From: Candidatus Omnitrophota bacterium
Lineage (GTDB): Bacteria; Omnitrophota; Gorgyraeia; Gygaellales; Profunditerraquicolaceae
Assembly: GCA_030650425.1 (NCBI GenBank)
Contig: JAUSED010000005.1
Coordinates: 14,932-78,931 of the forward strand
Reading direction: 5' to 3'
DNA length: 64,000 bases
Each line of letters starts with the position of its first letter. The first letter of the stretch is position 1. This document shows positions 1 to 21,000 of the stretch, piece by piece. The notes under the pieces are model-generated. The model was not told the DNA's origin, did no database searches, and saw only the letters and a program-made list of their open reading frames with translations. Both the position numbers and the translations under genes were made by a program.

Positions 1-3000
1 GGTGTCGGGACAGCTCTATTTGATGAGTTCAAAAATAGGGCATTTGATGAAACCCGATGGAATGTAGAGCGTATCACAAGCAGTGAAATTTTTGAGAACG
101 GAGCGGCCCTTAAATTTTGGACAAAGAAGGTTGGGCCGGAGAATATTGAGAAAGAACATCTGTCTATCAATGGTAAAGAGGTCATTGTCCACTACGTAAA
201 TTATTTTAAAGATTCAAAAGGCGCCGCCTCCAGCCCCGCCGCAGCATTTACTTTTGGCGCGGTGATAAAGATGGAAGGTTCTATTCTGCGTGTGTCGACG
301 TCTTCGCCGACCTTGGTCTTACCCATACATCATGAAACCCATCAGTGGAATCAATACTTTGACATCTTAAGCGGTGATGAGGGGATCGCCGTTATCAAAG
401 AAATATTGGATCAAGATACAAAAGCCTATATAGGTTTTGGTGATATGGTTGGAGTCCGCGTGATGAATAAGGCCCATAGCGAATCTTTTATTAATGCCCT
501 TATCCCTTATTCTGTCCGTATCGTTAATAACGTTATGGTGAAGTATGGCGGCCGCGCGATCCGTATTGGAGGCGATGAAATCGGGATTATTCTGCCTTCT
601 GTATGGAAGCATAAAGAGGCGGAAGCTATCCGGTTGGAGGCACAGCAGGAAGTCGGGAATTCCATCTTGGGCAAATTCGGATTCGTAAAAGTTAAATTTA
701 CAAATATCCCGAAGAAGGAACAGGCTAGAGTCTTGGAGTTGGCGCGGCTGGAATTGGGCAGTAAAGAGAACTTTTTGGCCGGCTTATATCTGGACCATGA
801 TGGCATCCTTATTGTTTATGACAGGTTCGGCACGACTCTTGAGAAAGGCCTTGAAGATAATCTGATTCTTTTGGGCGCCCGGTTGGCCGCTGAAGGTATC
901 GGGGGTTCTGTAAAAAGCATTGGTAAGCCGGTTGAATTAGCCAGCCCGCGTGTGCTGTTTGGCGTAGTGAGAGCGCCTGTGTTGGAAAATGTGCACGCAT
1001 CCTACGGCGCTGCCATTAGCTACGCTGAGCGTATTTTAAATCTTGCCAAAAAAAGAAATATCCCGGGCGCATTAAGAGCACGGTTTTATAAAATCTTAAA
1101 GACTTCCACGCTGCCGCCTATTTCAGAAGAAGAGAAAGCCGCGATTATCGCGGATTTTCCGGAAGTTAAGCTTTATCCGGATCAAATTGAAGCGTATTAT
1201 CCGGTCTTTAACCGTAAGGCGCTGGTTAACATTGTCGGCCAGGCGTTTCAGTTCAGTGGAGCGCAGCTGGTCAAGATAGAGTCTAAATATATGCCAAGAA
1301 ACGGTTTCGCGGCCCGTGTGCAGCGAGCGATTTACCGGGGAAGGGTTACAGTTGATGCACTAAGGGGTGACGGTAAAGGCTGGTTTGGATTCAAAGTAAT
1401 CAATGACTTTAAGAATCACCAAACTGCCAACCAAGTTATTCTCTCAAATGCCCAAGCCATTAATAAGGTATTGAGAGATCAAAATATCGCAGGCGTCTTA
1501 GTGGTCAGGGCACCGCCGGATAGCTTCTATTTGGTTGTCCCCGGTACCAAGATGTCCATTTTTACTCCGCAAGAACTTGTGGCTCTGACAGACGCCATCG
1601 AAAAAGAAATGAATAATTCCAAACCGCTCCAAACTATTCAGGCCAGTGTGCGGCTGACGGTTAATTCTGTTTCCAGTGAGGATGAAGGTAAAGGCATTCA
1701 TCCTCTCATTTCAAAAGTGGATAATCTAGCTAAGGTAACAATGAGTATCCCGTTCTTGGCCACAAAGGGTGGCAATGAAGTCAAGATATTCAAGCGTGAA
1801 TTTAATAGAGGGTTTGAAAGAGAGCTTGGTAAGTCAAGGAGCGTCGAACGTAAGAAATTCCAGAGTATCTTAGGAGTTACAGCTTTGTCTTCCACCAGCT
1901 CTCCTGTGGGTTTTAGCCCGTATGCATTCGAAGTTAAAATTTCCAAAGATAGCCGTGACTTGCTAGATAAAGCTTTGGCAGAAAAACTATTAAAATTACA
2001 GTTTGAGATCGTTAAGACACCTGTAGCAGAAGACGTGCGCACCACGGTGGCCGCCTTCAAAGGTGTTGGTTCGGACGGTAAGGATGTTCTGGGATTGGCA
2101 CGTAGCGTACAGAATGCCGGCAGCTTAAGTGCTTCTGCTGATGCCGGTTATAGCCTGATTGAGATTATTGACCGATTATTGGCTGACGGCGTGCAGGATA
2201 TTAAGCTTGTGCTCATCTATTATCCGTCAACGGCCAGCACATACGTACCGTCCATGAAATACTTGAATAATGGGCTTCCTAGAGAGGCAGCTTTCCAAAC
2301 TGTGATTACGCCGGATAGTAAACTTGGGAAACAGGAAGCGCTCAAAGAGCTGAAGGATGTCGTTGTTAAGGTAACCAAGCACGGAACAATAATCAATGCC
2401 ACTAATATGAATGGCAATAAAACCACGGTCAATATTGCCTGGGCCAAGGGATCCTCTTCGCCGTTCACTTCCAGCCCCGCAGCCGCAAACCAGCTTAAGA
2501 TTCTGCTTGTAGATGATGAAAGTAGTTTACGCGAGTTAACGCGTATGTTTTTAGAAATGAACGAGAATAAAGTTGATGAAGCAGTAGATGGCCAAGAGGC
2601 GCTAGAAAAGTTAGGCAGCACTAAATACGATTTAATTCTTACTGACTTAGATATGCCTAGAATGGGTGGCCTGGACTTGGCGCTTGCGGTCAGTCAATTC
2701 AGCAGAGGTGAATTAAATGCAAATACTCCTGTCATTATGACAAGCGGCAGAGGAATTAAGGCGGATATTATTTATTATATTGAAAATGAACTATCTGGCG
2801 CAGCCGATAAACTAAAAGTAGTGGAAAAAATAGCAGGATTCTTGAGTAAGCCATACATGAATAAGGAACTTATAAAGATGGTGGATAAAGTTATCTCGGC
2901 CAAGGAAAATTCTTCTTCTGAGGATAGCGGCTCTAGCCCCGCTTCCACAAAGCTTGTTAGTATTAGCAAAATAGCCAAAGATTCATGGGCAAGATTTACT

Positions 3001-6000
3001 AAGGAAAAAAGAATACTTTTCTGGAGAGTATTTGCTATTTCTTTGGACACGATAAAATTTGGAGTAATCGATGGCGACTGGATTAAAGAATTGGATGCGC
3101 AAATTTCTCAGGAAGCCAAAAATTATGGAGTCTCAAAAATAGATCTGCAAGAAGCGTTAGCTAAAATGGCTAAGCAGGAATTTGGCGATAGGGAGGGTTT
3201 AATCTTCAGTAGAGGCTCTTCACCGGTAGTGAATCAACAAACAACGGAGTGGGAAACAATAAGAGCTGTCTTGTTAGCGGCAATTTCTACCCTCTTAGAC
3301 TTGACCGGCATTCTGTACGATATCCTTGGAGCTTGGGAATATTTGACGATTATTCCTTTGTCAGTATGGTTGGGCAGGAAATTTATGCAAATAACAAAGC
3401 CTTATATGCTCGATAATAGATTACGGAATAGGATGTATGAGGCATTCCCTCTAAATCGGCCGAGTATAAAAACATCTCAAGAGAATATTCCAAAGCACGC
3501 CTCAAGCCTGGCCGGCTCCAGTCCGATTAATAAAAAACAGAAGAGTCAGATTAGAGAATTTATAAATTCTACTATACAAAACTTCGGCTTTGTTAGAATT
3601 AACGAAATAAAGGTTTATACTAAACATATGTTAGGAGCAGAGATAACGCAAGGAGAGGCTGAAAAGTTGTTCATAGAGGCTGGTTTAACGGAGAAAGAAG
3701 GGTTTTGGAAGTTTACCTCTAGTCCGGCTCAGGGGCTTGATAAAAAGATTATAATTCAAGAAGAGGACAAGGATAAGATTGGGTTAAGAGATGCGGAGGC
3801 GATCAAGAAAAGCCTAGTAAAGGGTATCGTAGAGAATGGAAATGTGCCAATGGTTATTGAGGCTATCCGGTCTATTTATGGAAAACTTATTAAAGAGACG
3901 GAGATTAAACAAATCGAAGTTCGATTATTTAATGACGATGGCAGCCATAAAAGAGTCTTTTTAGTTAAGGTTATTGGCGCGCAAGACGCGCGTTGGGAGT
4001 TTATACTTAAAGTCTTCAGGCCGCAGCCCGATGAATCGAGCGGCAGGCATATCCTGACGCCAGACGATATCAAACGCTCTAGAAAATCAGCTTATATCTT
4101 AAGCGCGGCCAGCCTTCATCCTAGAATAGGACCGGATATAGAAGTAAAACTTGATTCAGGAGAAATAGTCTCGGTTTATTCAGAGGCACGTGCCGAGGGA
4201 GACACGTTAGCTCAATTACGCCAACGTCTCGCGCTTGATTTCGCGAATGGAATACTTTCCCAAGAAAGATATTTAGCGGCATTGGATAAATTAGAGCGGA
4301 CCGTAGTGATGGGTGTTATACGAATGTGGTTAGTCTTAGGCAATCGCTATATTACAGATCCCAAGCCGGAAAATATTATCATTACAGGGAGTTTTGAAGA
4401 CGGTTATCAAATATTCTTTATTGATCTGGATTACGTAACAAAAGATGAGGTAAGCTTGGCTGAGGTGTTGGATACCTTGCGCAAGTTCTATGGGAAAAGA
4501 GAAGGGAAATGGACCAACAATATTATATATGCCTTAATTGATATGTATGGACACCAAGATGCGAAGGAAGCTTTGGAAGATGTTCTAAATAAGCAAATCC
4601 CAGATTTAGACAAAGAGTTGCGCAGGCAAGATGGCATTAGAGAAGAAGATTTTCCGGCGGGGGCTTTCACATATTTTGTTGAGTTAAAAGAAATGCTTTC
4701 AGGGTATAAGGAAGTCTTAAAAACTTATCAACGCATGGATGCTCATCGTAATTCAAGCCCGATAAATAAAAATATTAGATATTTTGGCGCAATAGTTGCA
4801 GGATTAACAACTTCTTCACCGATGGCCAAAAATATTCCGTTGACTCGCAGAGGCTTTATTAAGCTTACTGCTTTTCTTGTTGGCTTAGGTGTCTTGGATA
4901 CTCAAGAAGCGCTTTCTGTCGTCTCTAAGTTATCTACTCAAGAGTTATCTTCATATGTGGAATTCTTCTTAAATCAGGGAGGGTTCCAAAACTTTATTCC
5001 TTCGCATTATCCTTCCACAAAAGAAAACAAATCTAATCCTGATTATGCTTACCGTTATTATGCCGCCTACAGCTATGATATGGCCATATACGCGATTGTT
5101 TTAAAGATGCTTGGGTTTAGCTCTCAAGCAGAGAAAATCTTAGGGCCTTATAGTCAGATTCTTAATAAGGATATTTATCAGTCGCAGCCTAATTATGGAC
5201 CGGTAGGGGGTATTTTCCGTTCTATAAGGGTCTTGGAAAGAGAAGGAGAATGGTGGAAGAAGTGGGACTGGGGAGTAGAAGTAGGCCCGATGGCTTGGTT
5301 AGGTATTACTTCGCTAATCGTAAATCCTTCTCAGTTTAAGAATCTTGCGGTATATATCGCTGATTGGATTACAAAGCTTCAAGACAAAGATGGTGGTTTT
5401 AGAATGGGGCCTCGCGGCCAGTACCATCCTGAGGGCCCAGAGTTTTACTATAATACTAAATCTACAGAGAATAATGAGAGCGCTATTGCCTTCTTAGATT
5501 TACTTTATAGTTCCACAAAAGAATCAAAATACAGGGAAGCCAGTGACCGGGCATTTACCTGGATTATGAAAATGTACGATAAAGAGGCGGGGGTATTCTT
5601 TAGAGGCTCCCGTTTTGTTAATGATAAATGGGTGTCTGACGCCCATAATGATTTCGCGTCAGATACATCCAGCTGGGCTCCGTTTGAGAGATTGAAAGGA
5701 AAAGTCGGCTTACAAGGCATTGAAAGAATGCTTACTGAGACTTTAAAATTAACAGGTGTTTATGAAAATAATAAACTTTTAGGTGTAAGCTTCTCAATTT
5801 CGTCTAAGCCGGCAATTTCCATTGAGTGGTCATCTCAGTTTGCGTTAAGGGCCTTAAGGTTAGCCAATGAAACAAAGAATGAGCATTGGATTAATGTTTA
5901 TAACGACATTTCGCAGGCCCTTTCCAAATACTTTATAGATGTAAAGACATCTAATCTGGTTCCCGCGGAATACAAAAAGTATAAAGGCCAAGTTGCCCCG

Positions 6001-9000
6001 TACGCGGTCAATACGCAAGGCGAGCCAATGAGCCTTCCTACAGGGCACGGAGCGGTTACTCCTTTAAGCCTTGCTTCTTTAGCCTCTCTATATTATGTTT
6101 TCGCGGCAGCAAGATTCGATCCTTTAGAGAATATCAAAGTGAGTTCTTCGGTACTGCGGAACCCGCAGAATGAAATTTTCTTAAAATATGCTTCTTCAGC
6201 CGGTTTAAACCGTGATGGGCCTATTGGATTAGCCTCTAGCCCCGTAAAATCTTTTAGTTCTTTAGTTACCTCCGTTTATAAATTCTTCAAAAATACTTTT
6301 ATACAAAACCCGCTTTACTCGTTTGTTGTGATAGCAACATTTGTCGTAAATATCTACGTTGCCAAACTACTTTCAGAGAATATAGTTGCGCTTCCATTTG
6401 TTGTCTTATCCGTTTTATTAACATTGCAGAGTTATTCTATGATTAGTTTCGGTATCGCAGCCCTATTTGTTAAAGGCGCAAGGCCCCTAGCTCAGTTAGA
6501 ACAAAATGATTTGCCTCAAGTTACGGTTCAGATCCCAACGCGCAATGAACCGTTTGAAGTCGTAAGGATGACCATTGAGTCGGCAATGTCTTTAGATTAC
6601 CCAAGGAACCGGCTTGAAATTCAAGTGATCGATAATTCTGATTTATACATAAAAGACGCGGCAGGGGAGTTACGGCCTAACGGAAATTATTTGAGAATTA
6701 AAGAGTTCGCGAAGAACAATGCTAATAAAGGATTAATTTTTATTCACCGCGATGGGACGCAGGGGTATAAAGCCGGTAATCTTAACTTGGGCATGAAAAC
6801 AGCCGCTGGTGAATATTTCTTAATTTTAGACGTAGATTCAACGGTAGCTAAAGATACCCTTTTAAGCGCGCTCCCCGAATTTAAACATAACCACAGCCTT
6901 GGATTTGTGCAATTTGCTATGGAACCTACAAACACAGAAAATAATTCTTTAACAAAAGTGCTGGCGATAGGAGCAAGAATATTACGTTCCCAACAGGCGG
7001 CAAAGACAAAATACGGGTTTACCCTTTTCTATGGCCATAACGGTATTTGGCGAAAGAGCGCGCTTGATAAGATCGGCGGGTGGCAGGCTACTGTTTCTGA
7101 AGATACTGATACAGCGATTGAGGCGCGCTTGGCAGGTTTTTATGGAAAATATCTGCCTTATGTAATCAGCGGAGAATGGTCTCCTACGAGCTTTGCGGAG
7201 GTACAGAAACGAACGCGAAAATTTGCATTTGGGACAACACAGTTATTCTTTCAGAAAGTTATAAGAATTTTAGCCTCAAAAGCGTTGCATTGGTATGAAA
7301 AAATAGATATCCTGTTACATTTATTGAAATATCCTCTTAGCGCGACTATCTTACTTTTAGTTTTCTTGCCGTTCTTTATTCCTTCGCAAACACCATTAAT
7401 ACTGGGGATTTTTATGATGTATATAGCTCCATTAACTCCTATTTGGCTTCTACTGGTCAAAGATTTAATAAAAAGTGATTATAGAAATGCTTTTGAGACG
7501 TTGCGGAGAATTCCTGCCATGACATCAATATTTAACGCAACGATTCCTGCTATCGCAATAGGAACTATATTTGCGTTGGTTGGCAAGCAGGAAGGATTTA
7601 AAATAACCTTTAAGGGAAAACTAACGAACCCTTTATTAGCCCAGGTTATTAAAATAAACGCATTCGGTATAATAACCGGTTCAGTTTATTTCGTTATTTT
7701 ATGGATATTTTCGCCTTTGCAGAACAATATTGCGTACTTACCGGCTATGACGATGGCTGCTGTTCTTATAGGGCCTTTTAGGCATAGTTTTGCCAGGGTG
7801 GCGCAGAAACAGCCCGATGTAGGCCTGCCGAATATACTTGATTTACTTGAAGAAGGGCTTATTCATACTCCTAAGTCTTATGGTTCTGTAAACACAAAAA
7901 ATACCAGAATTAATAATAAGTGGGCGAGCATCGGGTTTGATTTGACGCGGCCTGTTGATGTAACTCATTATGACTATTTAATTGTAAGGGTAAAGGGCGC
8001 GCAGGGTGGAGAACGCATTCAGGTGAATTTGCGCGATAATCTTTGGGAAGACTATGATACCCCGCAGGCAAAGAGTAATATCGTTCCTGATGCCGGATTG
8101 TTGAGAGAAAATTGGCAGGACGTAAGCATTGATTTAAGCGCGCTCCTCAATAGGGAACGCATAGACCTAAGCCATTTATCGCATTTGGCTATTGAAATCG
8201 GCCAAGACACTGTTGGTAACCTGTCCGGAACAGAGATTGAAATTGAGCGGATTTATTTTGTTAGCTCGCCTGTATCGCCACATCAAAGCGTTTCTTGGTC
8301 GCCAGCAGTTATAGAAAGCAATCTTAGGGAACTTACAGGCCTGATTAATAGGATTATTGCGTTAGCAAGGAATCCGAATGTGAATAATAAAAAGATAGAA
8401 GGATACGCAAAAGACGCCACGATCATAGCCCGAGAATTAAGGAATAATGAGGCAAATGAAAGCGCGTATGCTCGTGAATACAGGGAGCAGGAAAAGAGAT
8501 TAATCAATGTGCGGAATTCAATATATTATAAGAAGAATGATGGCGGAAGGAATATTGTCGGCAATAAAATAAGGCGTAATTACGAGCGTAAATTGATGTT
8601 CGGTTTCCTTTTAACCAGAAATGAAGTTAAGGACTTAAGAGCGCTCTGGAGAGAATTCGATGTCCAATGTCTCTATGGTTATAATTTCGAGAGTAAAAAA
8701 CTACTTACTCTGAAAACATTGGCCAAGGCTTACAATAGAGTAGGGGATATTGGTCTATTAAGGCCTATTTTGGATCAAGTAATTTCTTATCTTCCAACAT
8801 ACCTTAGGCCGTCAAGAAGGATAGCTTATATATCTTTAGAGAGGGCCTTAAAAGCATATGAAATGTCTTTATATGATCTAGAAGCGGTTTTGGAAGACTT
8901 TGAAGAAAAAACAAATGGATTTTTTACCGCAAAGAGGGCCTACACAACCTATTTACAGCCAAAAGCAGAGGAATTATACGCTACGGAGCAGCTTTGGGAA

Positions 9001-12000
9001 GATTTTGAAGAGGGATCAAATAAATTCTTTGACTTCGGGGATTATTATAGTTTTTATCATCTCTGGCGTAAAGAAGCATATTATAACGCAAATAGGGCTA
9101 GGAGAGGAAAGCGGGGAACGACGAAGAAATTCGATGATTCCAAACTAACCGCAAGGCCGATGGAAGCCACGTTGAGGCTCGCGAATGATCTTACAAGATA
9201 CAAACTACGTGAGGAAGGCAGGTTCGATGAATTATTTAAAGATAACGAAGGACATTCCGGTTCGCCTATAGAGAATACCGCAAGAGTGCCACAGAAAACC
9301 TTCGGCGCGGTGGTCAAATGGTTCGGGGAGGCAGCCTCCAGCCCAGTTGCTCCAAGGCCGTCATTACGAACGAGCGCGGCGAATGAAGCAATCTTGCTTT
9401 TAGGGATTGCTTTGTCGTCCGCCATAGAGCTTAGGCGGATTCCTCGCAATGACACAGGTGTTAATGCTAACAGCAAGCTTTACACGCAATTTGCCGCCTC
9501 ATCCGGCATAACGCGCGCCGGGCCGGCAAAATTATTAGCAGTTTCATTAGCCTCTTTATTTATCGCGGGCGCAGCCTTATATTTAGGTTATTTGCTACAG
9601 GCCTTTATCTCATTTAATATAGGCTATTTATCTGTTATTCTGATTACCCCATTTATATATATCGGGGTATTGTTTATCTCCGCGTTCATTCGCATTAAAT
9701 TAAGCAGCTACATTAGATTATCGAGGTTGCCTGATGTCTTACAAAATAATCTGCTTATCTATGAGAAAACGTATCTTGAAGGTAAAGGCGAATTCAGCGC
9801 ATATTGGGCGCAGATTAAAGATTTATTCTCTTCCAGGCCTTTTATAAGCCTTATTGGCATAGCTGGTAGTATCGGAATACTCCAATTATTATCCACAGCC
9901 ATTGCTTATACCATTCCCGCAGGGTTAATAACTGGGCCGTTATTGACAGCGGTCATCTTCGGCATACCCATTCTAGTTGCCCTCATTCCTTTACTAAAAG
10001 CATTGCTTTTAATTTTACCCGGTGGCGAGAAAGAAGAGCCGCTTGCGTATTTAAAATATTTAGGCTTTCATATCGCAGGGGTAGTTTTAGGAAGTATGCT
10101 CTTTTGGAAGGGGTTAGTTGTTATTTTACCTTTCCTGAAGTCTCCGATTTTAGCTTTTAGCCTGTTTGGCCTTTCTTTAGCCGGCTTAGCCCTGAATCGC
10201 TACTTACTCAAACGGCCGGGATTAGGCCTGGCCAGCGCTATTCTAGGTGTTTTAGGTTTAGGCTTAAGCAGTGACCCACTGGTAAAATATTTAACTTTCC
10301 TTACGCCCTATATCTTTGAAGATCTAATTTCTTATTTCATTGTGGCGACATATTTCTCCGTAGGCATAAGCATAGCGATAGTGGCATTAAACGCAATCTT
10401 CCACGATAAAGAAAATAGAAAATTGGCGATAGGGACCAAATTTACTATTCCAATTGCAGCCGTAATTACGATTTTAACTTCTTTACTTATCGGCCTTTAT
10501 TTCCTTAACCCCTCTATGGGGCATATCATCAAGCCGTTTATCGTTGCCGCGGGTTTTGGCGCAATTGCCTTGGTGGGTTATTTAAGGAGCGGTTACCGGA
10601 TAAAGAGCCTGGCAATTTCCTCTTTAAGTAAAAAAGAGCTAACAGCTAAAATTAAGAAAAAGTTGTCCCCGGAAGTATTTGCGGCTATCCCTTTCCATAG
10701 TTACAGCAGATTGCAGCTGCGTTCCATCTACCTATTTATTTTAGAATTAGAAGAAAAGCCGGGAGCTAAAGCGCAGGATACTGATGAACCTAAGGATTTA
10801 ATCAAGCGTTTGATGATGGCCAGGGGCGCTTTTCTCTTTGCCGGTATCTTTGCGGAAGTTATGGATGCGGTTTTGGAAGTGCTGGAGCTTATGGAAAGAG
10901 GCACCAAGTGCCTACCGCCTATTTTAACCATTCCTTATTATATCGCGGCCAGCTTTGCTCTCGTGCCGTATTTTGTGGGTAAGGTAGCAGTAGAATTCTT
11001 TACTTCCCATATACATAGGAATTATGAGCGCCTGGAAAAGCTTAATAACGCGCCTGCGCTTGAGGTCGCCAATTTGCAAGAAGAAATCTTAGCCAGGGCC
11101 AACCAGAAATATACTCTCCTCAGGCATTTAGAGGATGACGCCTCAGCCAGTAATAAAGAACATCCACTCTTATCCGGCTTAGTCAGGATTGCTTGGTCCA
11201 GAATTTTCATTGTTTTGGTCGGCTGGCTCTTTAGCGGCCCGGTTGCCTTGGCGTTAGTTACTCGCTTCCCGTATCTTTTTGCAGGTGAAGCTGATTTCTT
11301 AAGGAGCCTCTGCGATTTATTGCCGGCTTACTTGAGCCAGCATCTAGAGCCTAGCTGGTTTAATCTCTTAAGGGTCTATTTTCTTAATTTGGTGTTATCC
11401 TGGGGCATTGCCAAGAAAATCAGCGAAGATATCAAAGCAAATTTCGCGAGTAACTGGCACTATCTTTGGATTATCCCGTCAGCAATCGTAATTTATGCGC
11501 TTAGCTCTTTAGTCTTTCCGGCAATTGCCGCCGGCTTTGCCCAAGTCCTGCCGCAAGGAATAGCGATTATTCTTGCTATGGCTAGTTATTCGCTCTTGAT
11601 TATCGGAGTCTCTAAGATAGTCAAGAGGAATGCAGATTTTAAAGTCTTGGGGATATTGCACAACAGCTTGAGTTATCAAGTTGGCTTCTGGGTTTCTTTT
11701 GTAGGATTATTGATTATCGGCGTAGAAATCGGCTTAGCTGTTGTCTTGGCGCACATTGTAGAGGGGCCAATAGGCGATATCCTGATAAGCTGGGAAAGCC
11801 ATAATGGCGTAATTAATTTAGGTGATGATGTGGTTGGAGGCTTGGAAAGAGGGGGAGAGCAGGGTATCAAATTCGCCACAGGCAAAGAAGTTGAAATTAA
11901 CACGAGTGGCTGGCTGTATAAATTATTCGGCGGCATAGGCGAGTATCGGCAAGCGCAATGGGCCGCGCAATCAGGTTCATTGGAACTTTATACGGACAGG

Positions 12001-15000
12001 AATTTACGTAAGGCTGCCGCAGCTAAAAATAAGAATTTCGAAGCATTATTTGGTGAAGTGTCATTATGGGCCCGCTTCTTGCTGCGCGATAAATCAGTTG
12101 AGGCCGCAGAATTATTAACCAAGGAGATTGTTGGCAGTAAAACAAAGCAAAGTTCTGCTCAGGTAGCGCCAAAGGATCATACAGAAGAAGGTAAACAGCC
12201 AATAGCAAAAGAAGCAGTAAGAAAAGAGCCCTATATTGTGAAACCGGGGGACAATCTATCCACGATTGCCCAAAAGACATTAGGTAAGGCAGGATTATGG
12301 CCCAAGATTTATGAGCTAAATAAAAAGGTAATCGGGAGTAATCCGAATTTAATCTTTGCCGGACAGAAATTTTCCCTGCCTGAGCAAGAGAAAGCGCTGA
12401 AGAAAGAAGATGCGCGTCCTGTTGTAGGCGGCGCTAAAGAAACTAACGCCAGCCGCGCTCCTCAGGCGCCGGATAACCAAGAGATTAACTCCCTCATTAA
12501 GGAAACCAATAGTTTAGCCTCTCAAGTTAAGAATAAAGAGCCTGATCTTAAGTCTGAGCAACTTTTAAAGAAATATAAGTTAATTGATAATGCGCTTGAG
12601 AAGTTAAGCGATAGAATCCAGAATCTTAAAACCCCTATTCCTGATCCTAAAATTAATATTAGTTTACCGGATTGGTTGGAGCAAGGCATAATTTTTCGGA
12701 CTAAGCTTAACCGGTTACGTCAGAAGGTTATTGAAATAGGGGATAAGCTTGCTGAGATGACTAACCTGATTAAGAACGAGCAGGATGCCAAGAGACAAAA
12801 ATTCATCCAAGAAGCGGCAACTGAAGCAACCTATCTGGAGAATCTGAAGAAATTCCGCAGCCTGTTGCCAGTATCTTATGCCCAAGACCCGGCTGAATAT
12901 GGCAAATCTTATATTTATGACTTAGCGGTGTATATTGATGTGTTAAGTTACTCTGATACCAAAAAAGCAGAAGAGCTCCTGCGTTTATTCACTTTCTTCT
13001 TCGGCAAAGGCAAAGACGGCTTTAGCAATGCTTATAATCTTTCTAATTTAAGCGGCTTCCAGCAGAAAACTACCGGGCCGCTGGCGCACTTGATTATCGC
13101 GATTAGTAATTATGAGGCTAGGAAGCTAGCAGGACAGGAGTCGTATTTAGAGGTAGCCGAGAATATCGCGGATTATTTGTTAAAAGAATTGTATGCCGGC
13201 GATAAAGGAGTCTTTAGGTTTACCAGCGACAAGAAAGACCCGGATAATTATAACTTAGTTTCTACCGAGCATCAGATTTCCGCTTACGCGGCCTTTAACT
13301 GGCTAGTTACGCGGGTCCAAGATGCGGCTAAAAAGGCAAAATACTCGCAAGTAGAATCCGGCTTAATCAAATACTTAGTTGACAGCTATGATAAGGCAGG
13401 TTATTTCTATGCCGGTTATAAATTAGATAAGCATGAATTTGACCAACGGCCGGCTGCGGATTTAGGGCCTTGGGCAATGCTGGCTTTGGGAGAAAAGATT
13501 ACAGCCATTGAGCCTACGCCGAAGAAGATCGTTGAATATGCCAAAGCTAACCTGTTGGTCAAGGTAGATTATTATTCAGCCCGCGAGCAAAAAACTGAAA
13601 TAGAATTGATGCCCTTCGGTAAAGAGTCCAAGGCAGATAAAGTAGGAAGCTTTGAGTGGAGCGCCTTCTGGATTATGGCTGCGCGTATGGCTGGGGATGA
13701 GGATTTGGCAGGCAGGCTGCAAAGTTCACTGCAAAAGGTTAGCGTAAACGGTATTCTGCCTTATGCCTCCAAAGAGGGCCACCCAACAGGATTTAATTGG
13801 AACACGGCTAAGGGTCCGGCTTTGATCTCTACTTCGTGGAATATTTTGGCTGGCGAGGATATCAACATCTTCAATCCGCAGGCGCCGGCTAAAACCATCG
13901 CTGTGGAAAAATTAGAGCAAATTGCCAAGGTTTTTGCCTTCTCCGAAGAAAAATACCGCAAGTTAGGCATTGGTTATAATGTGGATGAAATTCAGCGTTC
14001 CCTTGAAGGAATACAACGCACTGTAAAGCAAATGCAGTTGATGCTTTCTACCACCAAGGACCGGAATACCCAGAGATTGCTGGAGTTTTACTTCAATTTC
14101 TTTACCGCGGATCCGCTCTTTAATACTTTAGGCGCCTTCACTTTTGGTAAGATGGGCGCAGGCATAAGTTTTGGCGGTAAATACGGCTCGCTAATGACTA
14201 TGGCTAACACTATTTACGGCTTAACCAGAAGCCTGAACTTCATTGGTATTGCCACCGCGGTAACTACAGCCGCGGATATCTATTCTATGCCGGGGATGGA
14301 AAAATTGGAAGGCAAGCATGGCGGTATCCTGAAAAGAAAAGGGAATGTTTTTGACGCGGGAGTGCTGGAAGTTGCTCGGCCAGAAGCAGAGCTTAATGCC
14401 ACCTATGATCCTAAAACCGGAGATATTTTGGTTAAAGAAAGCAAAGAGCATTTACTGCAGATTAAGCTGCCGCACAACGTAGCCTCTGATTGGATTAATA
14501 AAATTGTAGAGTATTTTAAAACTAAAATTAAAGGCGACGAAGACAATCAGATTAGCCCGCTGAAAAAATATGACGCGGTAGTCTTTTTCTCCGATATCCA
14601 CAAGGCAGCATATAAAGAAGCGTTCTTTGGCGAAGATAATAATGATAAGTATGTCTATTTTGCCAAGAGGCAGGGTAGATACCAATATATTATCAAGGTT
14701 AATGTGGATGACACCAAAGAGATTAAGGTAATTTCGCAGGCGCTGATGTTTACTGATGAAACCCGGCAGTTCCTGGTTGATGCAAAGTTATGGATGGATG
14801 ACGGAGAGTTGCTTGTTTTGCCTTCAGCCTTACGCTTAAGCTATGCCAAAGATTTTGTCAGGGCAGTAGCCGGGGCTATGAATGCTCAAGAATTTAATGC
14901 CGGAGCGGAAATCGACCCTCTAACCGGCAAGGTATATTTTTATAACGATATCAGCCAGATCAGCGCGATTGTGCGCAACCAGAATGCGGTTCCGTTTAAT

Positions 15001-18000
15001 CCTTTCACCGGCAGAGTGGTGATCGCCTCTTTGGATTTATCGGTTTTACGCTGGGCAATGGAGGAGAATAAAACCGGCAAACACAGGTTTACTATTCTCA
15101 ATACCTTTGACGGCGTAGAAATCAAAACCGATGAAAACTTAGCGGTCAAGGAATTAAGCGAGGATAAAAAGATTAAAGTCAAAGGCATTGCCCACACGCT
15201 TCCCAAGGGGACTAAGTATATAGAAGGGAAAGAAGGCATTCTACCAGTGGCCTATGATAAAGAGCTGAATGTGCCCAAGGCCATTGCTTATAGCCTTGAT
15301 CCGCAAGTAGGCACCAGTTTTATCTATAACTTGAAAGAACTAAAGAATGTGGAGATCATTAAAGAGAATAAAGAGGTTAAATTTAATAATGGTACCTCTA
15401 TTCTCCTTACGCCGGGTACTTCCGTAATTTGGTATTATGATCAGGATGGCAAGACTGCGGTTCCGTTGATCATTGAATATGCCAAGAACAATGAAAACAA
15501 AGGCGCCAGGATTGAGGATAACGAAGGAAACAGCCTGCCTTTTGCCCAGCCGTTTGGCGTAATGGATAGCAAGAAGGAGCCGGATAAAAAAGGCATTCCT
15601 TACGCGGCAAAAGCCACGCAGGAAACCAATATCCAGAATGAATATAAATCTAAGCTCTACAATGAATATATGCTGCAGGTAGTCAGGCTGAATCAACTGC
15701 GCCGGCAGATGGTGGCGTTTAATAAATTGGCAGAAGCAATTAATCGTTTGTCACTGGATCAAGAAAAGGCGCGCAATCTTTTGGATAAACTCTACGGTAT
15801 GGAGTATTGGAAGCAGCAGCTTAATTTAGAAATGCAGATGGCAAAATCTAAGGTGCAGGGAGAGCTGAATAATATCGCCAATGCCAAGTCAGCTTATCAA
15901 AATGAGTTAACCAAGGCTCAAGCGGGAATTGAGAGCGCCAATCAGGAACTGTCAACGGTAAATGCCAAGATTAGCGAAGCTGAACAGCTTTTGGCTAAGG
16001 CGCAAGCCAGCAATAATAAAGAACTGGCTGACTTTTTGCAGCGCATACTAAACGGCGATCTTGAACCGGGCAGCACTAATAAAGGGTTATATAATTCTAA
16101 AACTGTGGCGCAGGCCAATCTTAGCAATGCCCAAGCATATGTGGGTAAGTTAGAGAGTAAGGATGTTAGCGCAAGCGATGTAGTTTTGGATTATGTAACT
16201 GCTCTGCGTAACGAAGTAGGATTAAGCACTATCAGTAATTTTGCTGATGGCGTAGGCAAGGATTGGCAAAAGAATCCGCTGCAGGTGGTAGCCGCGTGGA
16301 AACAATATCAAATCGCAGGGCTTGACCCGAATGAAATTCAAAAAGGCATAGATTATTATAATCAAAAATTAGATTTCCTAAAAAATACTGCCGTAGCGGA
16401 TTTAGATACCAAAACAAGCGGCGCCCAGCAGAATCTGGCGGATTTGACCAAAGAGCAAACTGACTTAAACGGCCCGGCGATTGTGAATAATAACTTTAAT
16501 TCGGCTTCTGTCGCGGGCATCAAGGCGGAAATAGACTTCATTTCCGGCCAGAATCGGGTGGATACCCTGCATTTAGAAGCCCTGGATACCAAGCTTTACT
16601 ACGCTTCCGGAAGACAGCAGGATGTGGCGAAATTAATTCCACAGACGCAAAAATACCTTGAAGACCTTAATGCTAATAAAATAAGCGCGCAGGCAGCAAT
16701 CGCCGGACTGGAAAAGTCCATTCAGGATGCCCAAATTTACAAAGATTACCTCGCGCAAAATCAGCAGGTGGATACGGTATACCTTGATTGGCGGGAAAAA
16801 ATGATCAGCGATACCTGGGGCGCCTTGAACTTGAACAAAGATGCCAAAGCGCTTGTCGCGCAGGCGATGGATAACATTAGCCAATATCAGCGTGAACACC
16901 TCGTAGAAAAAAGAGGGCTTTATGCTCAAAGGGACAGGATTGTTAATTTAGGAGAGAAGATTAAAGGCCTAGCTAAAGAATACAAATTACCTGAGCCGTA
17001 TCTTTTCGGTAAGGATGAGCTGGATAAAGTGCTTAACGCCGCCTATCCTGAAGTTGAATATCTGGCTTTCCAAAATGACGGCGCGGTAGGAAATATGATG
17101 TGGACCAGGGATTTGGTCAGGGCCTTAGGTATCAATTTTGATTTAGGAATGTGGGGTATTCAGGAGGGCAAGAATAATCCGGCTGCCACAGGCTGGTCAG
17201 TGTTAATGGCCAAGGAAGGCGAAACTTGGACTTCCCTAACCAAAGCCGAATTGGTTAAGAGGATACAGACAAAACAAATCGGGCCGGGCGCGTCTGAAGT
17301 TGAAAAAAATACTGAATACCGCGTGGTGCTTCTGGAGAGTTTTGGCATTAATCCTAGCGGCAATCTTACTTTTGTTTACAACGGTTACGCGGACTTAGAC
17401 TTGGATGGCAGCGGCAATATCTACGCCCATAATCTTAACCTGCGCAACGAGTTTGGCAAAGACAAGCAGTTTTTTGGCGAGCTCAAAGCGAGTATGGTTT
17501 CACTCTCTAAATCCGGCACGGAGTTATTATATTGGAAAGACCAGCAGGAGATTAAACATATTCCGGCAGCGATTGATGTAGCGGAAAAATATTACGCGGT
17601 GGATTTGAACTTTGGTTATGAAAAGGATGGTAAAGGGATTAATTTCTTCGTGCGCTGGATTCAGGACACCTCGGATTATTTCGGATTTAATGAAATCTTG
17701 CCCGGCATTGGCGCAAAATATTCTTTCGGTAAAGTGGTAGGTTTACAGGGAGAGGCTACACCGAAGACTATAAGGATTAACACCTCAGTCAAGCTGCCTA
17801 AAGATGCTACGCTTGATTTTGGTTGGAAAAACGATAATCTCTACCATAAGAATTATTATAGCGCCAGCCTTGAGATTCCGCTTCCGGTTTTCAGGCAGAT
17901 GAAAGTGCGGATGGAGGCTAATCTCGGCGAAAAAGGGAGCAGTTTTTACGGCCTTAAGGTTGGGCCAATTTATAAAGTGGATAAGAAAGGCCAAGAGAAA

Positions 18001-21000
18001 AAGGCATTCCCGATTAATCCGGAAAATAAGCCACAGTTGATTGAGAACGTGAACGCCTGGATGGCCAAAACTACGCTTAAGCCGGCAAAATCCGCTGAAT
18101 ATCCTCAAGCGCCTAAAAATTTCCTGAACCAGACGATGGTTATAAACGGTAAAGAATTTACGGTAATTTATTCGCCTGAAGGCGCCTATGTTTACAGTAT
18201 GATGATGTTAGATTGGGGCGCGAAATATTCTCGGGATAAAGAGCCGGTAAAATTAAGCGAAGAAGAATTTTATACCGCGCGCAGGCTGAAAGACATTGTG
18301 GAGAAGGTTTCCGAAGACAAATTGAATCAGGCCGGGATCTATAAGGAAGTTAAGAGTAGGGAAGAATTTTATTATACCTTAATCAAAGGCCAGAAGGTTT
18401 ACCTGAATGCCAGATTTGTAAAGGGTAAGATGGTTGCGGATAGGGATGCAATGGAGATGCTTATCCTGCTTAAGGCGGATACCTTTGAAGTAGTTGACTT
18501 AGGCAAAGAAGCCTTGGATTTAGTAACCAAGATGCGCCGAGAAACCGGAGTTCTCTACGCGGATAAGATGCATATACTCAATAATACGGAGTTGCAGGAG
18601 ATTATCAATGGGGGATATTTGTATGGAGTTAAAAATAAGGAGAATAAGGTTGTCCTGAAGGCAAAAGGATATCAGGGAATGGAAGGGGTCTTGGAGCTGG
18701 GGATTGGCGGCGTATCTATCTTAAGGGATGTTGTCAAGTCTTCGTATGTCCGTTTAACCCGCGAAGACGGCCAGACGCGTTTTATTAAAGCTAATAAAGA
18801 ATTGCCTTATACCATTAAGGCTGAATTAATCCACGATAGCCGGGCGCCTCCGGAAACCACCTCTGGATTTACTTTAAGAGAGCTTACTCCTGCCGAAGTT
18901 AAGAGCCGCAAATTTGCTGTGGTTGACGCGATTTTCACCGAATCCGGAAAGCATTATTTAGTTGATTATCTGCCCTATCAAGCCGAAGAAGAATTAGGAA
19001 AACCTGCCGTATATTTGCATTCAGAATTAATTACTATTCCCGTCTCCGGGCGAGATTTAAGAAAAGGCGAGATTAACATTCCTGATTTTGCCAAGATGAG
19101 GCCAGCCAAGAAAGATGAGCTTAGGTGGGAATATAACCCTCTGCTTGGCGAAAAGGTAAAGATTAAGATCTCCGGCCAAGAGAATGCCGCTACTCTGTCA
19201 ATAAAGAAAGACGGCAAGGAGCATATTGTTTCTTATTCGCCTGAAGTCGAGGCGTTCTTTGATTGGGTAAATACTTATAATTACGCCTATCAAAACATCC
19301 CGCAAAAAGGGATCAAGGTTTACTTTAGCAAAGAGGAAATGCCTACCAGCTGGTATCCTGAGAAAATTGACCAAACGCTGATTGTCGGCAAGCCGCAATA
19401 TTTTAGCGATGACAAAAAATACGGAGAGGCAATTGTTAAGATTGCTTCCCTTTACGGCTATAAAGAGGCCAAGGCATTTGAAAAAGAATATCAAGGCGCT
19501 GTATTTGATTTAAGGACCAATGGCTTGGTGGTTTATACTGACAAAGGCCGCGATGCCGTATATATCATCCGCTATCAGGATGACCAGGAGAGGATAGTTA
19601 CTGAAGCCATCAAGTCCTTTAAAGTAGGCCAGAAATCTGAGCCGCTGACGGTTGCGCAGGAAACAATTCCTTACATCATCGCCTTAAATAATTTTAAGGA
19701 TGGTAAAGAAACCGATGCTAATACTATCTTTACTAAGGTGAAGTTGGAAGATTTACGCCGCCTTGATAATTACGAGCAATTCAAACAGCTAATATTAAAG
19801 AACCAAACAATGGTTACTGCACACTCGAAAAGCATTACCCCTCAAGAAATCCCATACCAGCAGATTAATAAGATCATCGAAAAATTTGCAAGCTTAGGAT
19901 ACAAGGCTCTTAACCGGGACAAAACTCCCTACAGGGCAGATAGTTTAAAGAAATTAGTTAAGATAGCCAACCTTAATCCTGACGGAAAACCGCGGAGCTT
20001 TGAGTATCAAGGTTTTGGCGACTCTAGCCTTCCCCGTATCAAGGTAATTGAAGGCAAGGTTCTGGCCTTTGGCGAGTATGAAATAGAAGGCCGTTTCGCC
20101 GATATCGTCTTTGACTACCAAGGCAAAAAACTAAGCCTGCGTTTTGATTTGGATAAACAATCGGATGAACCTATAGCCGTATCGTTCTTCATTGATAACC
20201 AGAGGACTTTAGTTATAGACCTTTATAAAGAGCTGTTATTTATAGATGTAAGAAACAAAGATCAGGGTTACTGGACAATGCGCCAGCACCTGAGAAAGAA
20301 CGGAATATTTGATAGTAAGTGGAATGAGATAATAGACAATATCAGCCATATTTTTGCTTATAAAATAGATAGGGAAGAGAGCTTTACTTATGATGGCCAT
20401 CCAGCTTACCATCCTTCTTTATTGAAAGCATTGGAGATACCTTCTATTACTAAAACTACTTATTTAAAGTATAACGGTGAAACTAAACCGATTGAAATCG
20501 GGTTGGGTAGATTGGTTACAATAGATTCTGAAAAAGGGCTTATACAGTCAGAAAGCATAGTACACATTTATAATAAACTTAATCAATTCTTGGGAGATGT
20601 TACTTATGTCGCGTATAGGGATTTCAAGGGTAATGTGAGAATCCAGACTTGGGAAGGCATAGTAAATGGAGAAAAAATTGATGTTGCAACTTATGTAATT
20701 GATTATGATAAATATGGCTTAGGTTACGATTCTTTCACTATTATCAATAACGAAATAAATTCTTACACCAAACATGTTGGTAAGGATAGGGATACCGGTT
20801 TATTCTTTTTCTTAACCTTGGAAGGAGTCTTCTCTCAAGTTCCCGGTTTACAGGCTGTCGCCATAAATAATTACGAATTACTTAGAGAAAAATTAAAAAA
20901 TAAGGATGCTAAGATATTCCCTAAAGGTTTGAGGAGTGTCAGTCTTGCTGGTAAGACCGGAGAAGGTAAGATGTCTAGGGTTCTGGAAGGGTTTGATGAG

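Follow-up and report, generated by a model that had tools for sequence, protein, structure and literature searches.

A 64,000-nucleotide (nt) stretch of contig JAUSED010000005.1 from a Candidatus Omnitrophota bacterium, which we call the window, lies within one giant open reading frame (ORF), and deep inside this frame it encodes a segment resembling the N-terminus of a protein exported by way of twin-arginine translocation (Tat). The segment, MAKNIPLTRRGFIKLTAFLVGLGVL, begins at nt 4822 with amino acid (aa) 1608 of the window frame (site 1), and at least 1,607 residues precede it. Sequence comparisons tip the balance slightly toward the view that nt 4822-4896 is the original Tat-type N-terminal signal of a captured cassette encoding an (α/α)6 barrel, and that it still serves as the export signal of this module. 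We infer that the signal is still working because the module originated as a cassette, because the twin arginines (RR) and the weakly hydrophobic core behind them are conserved over a long evolutionary distance, and because RR-type signals are restricted to copies of the barrel embedded in longer proteins.

Frame +0 contains no stop codon from nt 1 to 63999, while the remaining five frames contain 752-2,196 stops each, and by codon usage it ranked best in all 900-nt windows. The ORF comprises at least 21,333 codons and runs past both ends of the window, which is thus an internal piece of it. A sequence-only reading of this DNA had reported Met and twin-arginine segments deep inside the ORF at two places, and both were borne out in this frame; the second, MGISRRSFIK…LAGC, starts at nt 60685 (site 2; aa 20229, with at least 20,228 residues preceding). 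Because the protein has an unusual look at 61-63 kb, coding in another frame or strand was considered for that region and rejected, frame +0 being best there by codon usage.

At site 1 the translation reads ...GLTTSSP-MAKNIPLTRRGFIKLTAFLVGLGVLDTQ, with a Ser-Ser-Pro (S-S-P) junction directly before the Met. The pattern RRxF[LI]K matched just twice in the 21,333 aa, at sites 1 and 2, compared with 0.036 matches expected from composition (0.004 if a leading S/T is required). Each excised peptide scored 18.2 bits with the NCBIfam model TIGR01409 (TAT_signal_seq; curated cut-off, 16.7 bits), and the alignment covered positions 1-19 of the 29-position model at site 1 and positions 1-12 at site 2. 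A chance origin of both motifs was rejected on the motif statistics together with the hidden Markov model score. The Pfam Tat model gave no match at either site. In the hydropathy scan, the hydrophobic core (h-region) of site 1 stayed under the 19-residue threshold for membrane helices, and its hydropathy was typical of the RR group described below.

The cassette led by this signal measures 474 aa between the S-S-P junctions at aa 1605 and aa 2079. Its homologues had E values down to 1e-96, and six of them are standalone proteins of ~450 aa encoded on long contigs, mostly Desulfobulbales metagenome-assembled genomes and one Omnitrophota. They are colinear with the cassette end to end, with Sec-type signal peptides in the place of the RR segment, and finish ~35 residues short of the closing junction. 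One standalone copy adjoins monofunctional transglycosylase, PBP1 and MipA, neighbours that belong to the cell envelope. A search for homologues in which the two segments start standalone genes had been suggested beforehand; the standalone homologues of the site-1 cassette have Sec signals in that place, and for site 2 no homologues were found. The match to standalone secreted proteins upholds, for site 1, the impression of a Tat-exported N-terminus; at site 2 the core is interrupted.

An AlphaFold model of the cassette (predicted local distance difference test, 74; predicted template-modelling score, 0.77) showed an (α/α)6 barrel, and its first ~35 residues were of low confidence, as expected of a signal. 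The best Foldseek matches in the PDB were GH88 unsaturated glucuronyl hydrolase, cellobiose and GlcNAc (AGE-type) 2-epimerases, GH76 and GH105, with probability 1.0, template-modelling (TM) scores of 0.5-0.62 and 9-14% sequence identity. In Pfam, the barrel had weak, sub-threshold matches to GH88, SQHop_cyclase and Prenyltrans. From the fold and the secreted standalone homologues, we predict that the passenger is a secreted-type glycan-processing enzyme. At aa ~4283-4675 (nt 12847-14025), tblastn gave a weak match (E ~0.01) to a further copy of the (α/α)6 barrel family, which has no RR motif and is situated downstream of a LysM domain and clustered hydrophobic segments.

Other giant frames contain the cassette as well. 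The JGI contig L001, whose frame stays open along its whole length bar one frame change, is 68% identical and reads TSSS-GLTRRGFIKITLLFAGLGIF, with a CTA codon before the Thr and so no start codon. P0015 (6,364 aa; 65% identical) reads RTSSP-TISRRSFIRITAFLAGLGVF, and its colinearity with the window extends over both the barrel and the family-2 glycosyltransferase (GT2) that follows it; elsewhere in its chain it has VSSP-LKVTRRSFIKSIGGLGAAFVLAAFTGEVSAQ. L003, a 12.7-kb stop-free stretch, is 64% identical and reads GKASSSA-ISRRSFIRSLIQLATFL, and it carries a second signal straight after the barrel, HISSSP-VGGIFRAGISRRQFLIVAAMFVPSFL. The RR motif is kept as LTRRGFIK in L001/P0016 and as ISRRSFIR in P0015 and L003, so that the closest embedded relatives share the pattern [LI][ST]RR[GS]FI[KR] followed by an h-region, and more distant embedded relatives have RRxF[LI]K-type motifs. 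The Met, on the other hand, is not kept: its position is occupied by CTA in L001, by SSP-TIS-RR in P0015, by SSSA-IS-RR in L003 and by Ile-Thr in P0017, with ATH or ACN codons. Homologous giant genes lacking either the Met or the RR motif had been named beforehand as evidence against an embedded signal; they lack the first and retain the second, and half of that expectation holds.

The window, L001 and L003 have different modules on either side of the cassette, and similarity spans the stretch from the RR motif to the barrel C-terminus. The conserved mobile unit is therefore the RR signal plus the barrel. Both the RR motif and the h-region are kept as well as the enzyme domain at 64-68% identity and persist to ~40% identity, whereas the linkers around them are unalignable. 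We consider it likely that the site-1 signal has been maintained by selection. The relatives were labelled Omnitrophota, Planctomycetia and Acidobacteriota, and the closest public locus bears the label Planctomycetia. No informative neighbours were present on the contig bearing P0015, and scans of metagenome contigs for further orthologues found none. The locus that encodes P0015 (L024; ENA ERZ24794671 NODE_2206, 1-39095) has three long open frames (+2, +1, +2), which overlap by ~150-180 nt, as in a giant ORF with two frame changes; the changes may be assembly errors, true frameshifts or borders of separate genes. In L001 (1-830; P0001 aa ~225-245), a JAMM/MPN-like metalloprotease motif, HTHPxxxxxxxPSxxD, was found in the module upstream of the RR signal, so a protease-type module adjoins the junction there.

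To survey signal type across the family, we searched 1.84 billion representatives exhaustively with HMMER, obtained 199 matches and kept those aligned into the N-terminal part of the barrel. A copy was counted as embedded if the barrel began >120 residues into a longer protein, and as RR-bearing if it had RRx[F/A/G][L/I] and an uncharged core directly upstream. An RR-type signal preceded the barrel in 15 of 45 embedded copies (13 recognized by pattern, and P0018 and P0020 by eye) and in none of 38 standalone copies (Fisher p=3e-5), most of which had strongly hydrophobic Sec-type signals. In a neighbour-joining tree, the RR-bearing copies did not form one group, and Sec-type standalone copies were nested among them; the RR signal thus tracks embedding and not one recent clade. 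Five of ten excised homologue signals passed TIGR01409, with 19.9 to 32.0 bits. Furthermore, the best 10-residue hydropathy mean was 2.20 for 19 internal RR signals and 3.01 for 29 standalone Sec signals (Mann-Whitney p=2e-8). Low hydrophobicity of the h-region separates Tat- from Sec-dependent segments, and the internal RR signals, with their weaker cores, behave as Tat signals should (Tooke et al. 2017, PMC5449189).

The S-S-P linker that had been noticed before site 1 is real and belongs to a set: SSP occurs 47 times in the frame, compared with 3.7 expected, with the junction consensus [R]-[S]-S-S-P-[V/A/L/I]-[E/K], in which Arg often precedes (RSSSP). No copy falls inside the 15 recognised domains (6.3 expected; P=0.001), and the receiver, glycogen-synthase, phosphoglucomutase and CofD domains have copies 8-18 residues upstream. 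A vestigial Met persists at some former N-termini, as in SSPLERMTIEKG ahead of the phosphoglucomutase and KPMHIVMVSAE ahead of GlgA. Individual junctions encode their Ser residues by TCN or by AGY, with switches among the copies, and the motif is therefore conserved at the protein level; for the same reason, a DNA-level repeat was rejected as its general explanation. A subset of junctions at 48-62 kb does share DNA, namely the core CGCTCCAGCTCGCCGGYGGA and an 87-nt element whose product is ~DSLSxSPxxELENKSxxxxRSSSP[VA]E. The codon after S-S-P is NTG in just 11 of 47 junctions, and a former start codon at this position was rejected accordingly. SSP is also enriched in the closest relatives (P0015, 20 vs 1.7 expected; L003, 8 vs 0.8; P0016, 3 vs 0.2), and no enrichment was seen in other giant ORFs carrying the same barrel domain. 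We regard S-S-P-[VAIL] as a candidate processing site or linker.

Three further observations concern the junctions. The core CGCTCCAGCTCGCCGGYGGA, which forms the 3' part of the 87-nt repeat, was found again at about 51691, 53218, 56303 and 57380, so some junctions were copied at the DNA level. In this lineage, some of the junctions have a conserved spacer of ~30 residues ahead of them, NPQN.hY..YAASSGL[NT]R.GP....SSP (window aa 2053-2081; P0015 aa ~3366-3400, ~3840-3880 and ~5394-5440; L003 aa ~390-420). The distant relative P0087 (2,380 aa, JGI) has another junction-like motif, G-A-R-L-[AT], in at least seven copies; it also has an internal signal of the Tat-lipoprotein type and an internal Tat signal ahead of its barrel.

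Under the reading that we favour, the chain would be cut at or near the S-S-P junction, and MAKNIPLTRRGFIK... would become a true N-terminus. The barrel, already folded, would then cross the cytoplasmic membrane post-translationally via Tat, and the neighbouring cytoplasmic-type modules would remain inside. Met1608 would be a leftover start codon that no longer works. That the site-1 segment acts as a Tat-type export signal is, from comparison with its relatives, marginally the better supposition. Cleavage at the S-S-P junction may be needed for this, a tentative step for which the balance leans somewhat to the other side.

Relatives with export signals in series bear on this step. L003 has the order RR-barrel-SSSP-RR without a membrane helix between the signals; P0017, P0020, P0026 and P0090 have a Sec signal peptide, a ~370-aa domain and an (SSSP-)RR-barrel, again with no helix between; and P0017 and P0026 have no helix between barrel and GT2 catalytic domain. 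A GT2 catalytic domain requires cytoplasmic sugar nucleotides. An uncut chain is unable to place every RR inside, the barrel outside and the GT2 inside, and the serial signals therefore favour cleavage. Processing of the chain, which the sequence-only reading had listed as one way to make sense of internal signals, is thus favoured by evidence that is indirect. As a wider and rather doubtful proposal, the giant ORFs of this lineage might be chromosomal polyproteins cut at S-S-S-P|[VAIL], which would set gene-sized modules free in the cytoplasm and whose exported modules swapped Sec for Tat, being folded at release.

Several points weigh against the favoured reading. The evidence for cleavage, export and Tat dependence is wholly comparative. 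When left in a context of 570-590 aa, the two signals scored 13.1 and 7.2 bits with TIGR01409, below the cut-off, and a clear A-x-A signal-peptidase site is missing from site 1. Hydropathy values and helix counts come from a Kyte-Doolittle heuristic and not from a trained predictor, and the topology arguments rest on such heuristics and the positive-inside rule. The 15 RR-bearing relatives are not independent events, several of them sharing an N-terminal domain. Five of them, among the more distant embedded relatives, keep a Met 2-5 residues before the RR and may have internal starts. No protease domain was found among the 21,333 residues at Pfam E<0.01. The window is all one ORF, and a search of the fetched loci found neither TatA nor TatC, an uninformative result. 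Finally, if there were three spans at aa 2104-2157, an uncut topology would be self-consistent here, with the RR helix leading from the cytoplasm to a periplasmic barrel and three helices leading back to a cytoplasmic GT2.

The best-surviving alternative, which we nevertheless regard as unlikely, is such an uncut chain, with an internal Tat-dependent signal-anchor: the RR helix would insert N-in/C-out once the upstream cytoplasmic modules had been made, Tat would move the folded barrel across, and the hydrophobic segments would return the chain for the GT2, so extending the dual Sec/Tat mechanism of membrane proteins. The combination of an internal RR motif, a weakly hydrophobic helix and an outside domain is established (Keller 2012 PMC3471235; Tooke 2017 PMC5449189). 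The hydropathy of the site-1 h-region fits it, the upstream GGDEF and REC modules are cytoplasmic types, and the segments before the GT2 could bring the chain back in; the lack of proteases in the Pfam search of the window also agrees with an uncut chain. The known cases, however, have the Tat-dependent helix in last place and a passenger at the C-terminus, whereas here at least 19,000 residues follow. The segments at aa 2104-2157 match the cellulose-synthase model TIGR03030 at its positions 58-159, the helix pair before the catalytic domain, and look like a two-span hairpin rather than three spans, which is the wrong parity for an uncut chain. Moreover, the serial signals of L003, P0017, P0020, P0026 and P0090 would leave RR motifs outside.

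It is quite improbable that the segment is a non-functional relic, the fossil of a stop-loss fusion whose barrel is now cytoplasmic beside the GT2. Decay of this kind is demonstrated by site 2, with Arg in its h-region, no homologues and a truncated module; P0017, P0018 and P0026 have the barrel joined, with no membrane helix between, to GT2 catalytic or kinase-like domains, which should lie in the cytoplasm; and 30 of the 45 embedded copies are without an RR signal. The conservation of the RR motif and h-region relative to the linkers speaks against a relic, as does the signal-bearing, secreted nature of the standalone family members, and neutral decay would not be expected to leave RR signals in embedded copies and in no standalone ones. 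An internal translation start at ATG 4822 (and 60685), yielding a separate Tat precursor from the same mRNA, is the weakest reading and very improbable: an in-frame ATG does stand exactly at the standalone-gene start position, and the five distant relatives mentioned above keep their Met, but no Shine-Dalgarno-like sequence lies within 20 nt upstream of either ATG, promoter-like matches are at chance level only, the Met is missing with RR intact in the closest relatives (CTA in L001, Thr-Ile-Ser in P0015, Ile-Ser in L003, Ile-Thr in P0017) and is replaced by SSSP in P0017 and P0026, and post-junction codons are rarely NTG, so that internal initiation, also raised in the sequence-only reading, is unsupported in this lineage.

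Site 2 had been called the clearer of the two cases, and this did not hold. Its context reads ...ALISSSA-MGISRRSFIKNSSLVLLGPSRLASLLRYLSALSLAGCGGGGGTENQ, and the junction DNA, TCC AGC TCA GCG ATG, resembles the common junction TCC AGC TCG CCG GTG. The n-region and lipobox (LAGC, aa 20261-20264, with Cys20264 at nt 60790-60792) are intact and are followed by the Gly-rich linker GGGGGTENQAPAP; two Arg interrupt the core, no uncharged run exceeds 10 residues, and at 1.51 its best 10-residue hydropathy ranks second from the bottom among the 19 signals. The window has two matches to the lipobox pattern [LVI][ASTVI][GAS]C (1.2 expected); one lies 27 residues past the site-2 RR pair, and the second falls midway along a membrane helix. 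Site 2 thus lacks two features of lipoprotein signals, being internal and having a broken hydrophobic core. No homologues of its module were found in 5.8 billion proteins, and a copy of the 87-nt repeat (61044..61130) truncates the module ~120 residues past the signal. Because two Arg break the core, homologues are absent and the module is truncated, we conclude that site 2 is probably a decaying copy of a Tat-lipoprotein precursor with an origin like that of site 1. By eye it looks like a paralogue of the site-1 cassette; this was unsupported by BLAST self-comparison, tblastn with 14 homologues and hhalign, and was rejected.

Intact internal lipoprotein-type signals are present in P0087 (TRRQILQRGVVGAVLTALGGLGALTGC) and P0072 (MKKAVLTMVAGAWLCTAAGCGGGS). 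Signal peptidase II, by cutting at such internal signals, would provide a ready-made way of splitting the chain on the outer face of the membrane. After the truncated site-2 module, aa 20400-21040 (nt ~61200-63120) are Ser-rich and of unusual composition, and a minus-strand ORF of 154 aa lies at 62094-62558.

Table 1. Features of the 64,000-nt window, with positions in nt and, where given, in aa of frame +0
Feature	Position	Strand	Basis or remark
Mosaic giant ORF of gene-sized modules	1..63999	+	Stop count, codon usage, Pfam
S-S-P junction directly before the site-1 Met	4813..4821 (aa 1605-1607)	+	One of 47 SSP
In-frame ATG, Met1608, vestigial cassette start	4822..4824	+	Few residues from the N-terminus of standalone homologues
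Twin-arginine motif T-R-R-G-F-I-K	4843..4863 (aa 1615-1621)	+	Fits the S/T-R-R-x-F-L-K consensus
h-region LTAFLVGLGVL, 11 uncharged residues	4864..4896 (aa 1622-1632)	+	Best 10-residue Kyte-Doolittle mean 2.29
(α/α)6-barrel glycan-enzyme-like domain, passenger of the signal	5086..6126 (aa 1696-2042)	+	tblastn mapping of homologues
S-S-P junction closing the cassette	6235..6243 (aa 2079-2081)	+	Homology to P0015 and L003 stops here
Hydrophobic segment pair opening the next module	6310..6471 (aa 2104-2124, 2128-2157)	+	Hydropathy scan
Family-2 glycosyltransferase, processive-synthase type	6514..7407 (aa 2172-2469)	+	Pfam PF13632, PF00535, PF13641
87-nt in-frame repeat, three copies 79-83% identical	56514-56600, 61044-61130, 61959-62045	+	Ends R-S-S-S-P-V-E
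Junction variant S-S-S-A before the site-2 Met	60673..60684 (aa 20225-20228)	+	Parallel in L003, SSSA-ISRR
Site 2: Met, S-R-R-S-F-I-K (aa 20232-20238), broken h-region, lipobox L-A-G-C	60685..60792	+	

The giant frame very probably consists of formerly separate genes fused in frame, since the ORF strings gene-like modules between S-S-P junctions and the flanking modules differ among relatives; as an account of origin, the gene fusion by stop loss suggested from the sequence is thus supported. Pfam matches in frame +0 comprise GGDEF (aa 464-575), a receiver domain (REC, aa 834-933), the GT2 (Table 1), CBM30, LysM, two CofD, HATPase and GNAT, as well as starch/glycogen synthase with GT1 (aa 11721-12183), ROK kinase (aa 12621-12945) and a complete set of four phosphoglucomutase domains (PGM I-IV, aa 14619-15055). 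PF08323, PF00534, PF02878-80, PF00480, PF00072, PF00583 and PF02518 are among the entries present, next to many hydrophobic segments. With more than 10,000 codons, Pfam modules of sugar metabolism and signalling, and membrane helices, the window has what defines a giant multi-enzyme ORF.

Apart from the cassette, a stretch of ~6,700 residues (aa ~3113-9835; nt ~9340-29500) is without any S-S-P junction and dense in clusters of hydrophobic segments, and aa 5001-10000, inside it, gave no Pfam match at E<0.01. This part of the giant ORF seems to be constructed differently. Duplications were also detected. About 1,180 aa are repeated with ~55% identity (aa 10532-11710 vs 12959-14133; nt ~31594-35130 vs ~38875-42399), both copies terminating at an SSSP junction ahead of the next module, and an older pair of ROK-like modules (aa 12617-13003 vs 14272-14640) is 27% identical. 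A 180-nt direct repeat (29502-29681 vs 50484-50663) is 93% identical over a distance of 21 kb, and both of its copies begin at an SSSP junction (SSSP[IL].TGALVGTRFEQQVARLMGVGSLSETLRGI).

In comparison with known Tat signal peptides (TIGR01409), the window signals are alike in S/T-R-R-x-F-L-K, in the short, weakly hydrophobic core and in the lipobox of site 2, and differ in being internal, each straight after an S-S-[PA] junction. A Tat h-region is uncharged over about 12-20 residues; the core of site 1 has 11, and that of site 2, being interrupted, does not qualify. Internal RR motifs are known from dual Sec/Tat membrane proteins, namely the actinobacterial Rieske protein Sco2149, the Sco3746 family and polyferredoxins (Keller 2012 PMC3471235; Tooke 2017 PMC5449189). 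Those proteins share with site 1 the internal RR motif, the helix of low hydrophobicity and the globular outside domain. Their own features are an even number of Sec helices before the motif, a Tat helix that is the last one and a C-terminal passenger with a cofactor. The window, unlike them, has cytoplasmic-type modules before the motif, thousands of residues after it and a barrel without a predicted cofactor; only one weak hydrophobic segment occurs in the 1,600 upstream residues, and dozens of segments occur in the at least 19,000 residues downstream.

Export signals at module borders are also found outside bacteria. Flaviviridae polyproteins contain internal signal sequences, and chloroplast bipartite transit peptides expose a thylakoid Tat signal after cleavage. 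The likeness to the window is in signals that are active or cut during maturation of one product; these systems differ in being eukaryotic or viral and in using Sec61 or a defined stromal peptidase. We know of no bacterial chromosomal polyprotein of this kind. Exopolysaccharide systems pair a periplasmic glycanase with a GT2 synthase, for example BcsZ with BcsA. By analogy, the order of barrel and GT2, which recurs in P0015, P0017, P0020 and P0026, may resemble this pairing of a secreted (α/α)6-type glycan enzyme with a membrane-bound processive GT2, with the difference that in the window enzyme and synthase share one reading frame.

Giant genes in Omnitrophota were first surveyed by West-Roberts et al. 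(2023 preprint), and giant proteins termed "multi-enzyme metabolic clusters" have been described for the phylum (Nielsen & Lui 2026 preprint). The window resembles the latter in its stop-free ORF of tens of kb, in its starch synthase, GT1, phosphoglucomutase, ROK, REC, GNAT and HATPase modules, and in its many helices. One of the preprints conjectures cleavage without known sites, and the other is silent on cleavage (Nielsen & Lui 2026; West-Roberts et al. 2023). Twin-arginine signals, linkers, junction motifs and polyproteins are unmentioned in both, and in one of them internal signal-peptide calls were suppressed as chunking artefacts. A literature search found nothing on Tat in Omnitrophota. 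Thus, giant multi-enzyme ORFs and internal RR motifs in dual Sec/Tat membrane proteins were already known. Conserved module-level Tat signals deep in such ORFs, the restriction of RR signals to embedded copies of a secreted enzyme family, and the preceding S-S-P junction motif were not found in the giant-gene preprints or by full-text search.

The question addressed by these findings is whether giant bacterial proteins of 20,000 to 150,000 residues are single chains or are cut into pieces. They offer two testable handles on it: the module-border motif S-S-P-[VAIL], and conserved signals behind the junctions, whose Tat type is confined to embedded modules. Should these signals work, one reading frame would supply both cytoplasmic and periplasmic enzymes, and Tat targeting would extend past the N-terminal and last-helix cases. 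If they do not, they still record the growth of giant genes by in-frame capture of complete precursor genes. Were the polyprotein reading true, the cleavage site long sought in giant bacterial proteins would be S-S-P, with the internal RR signals as its functional signature.

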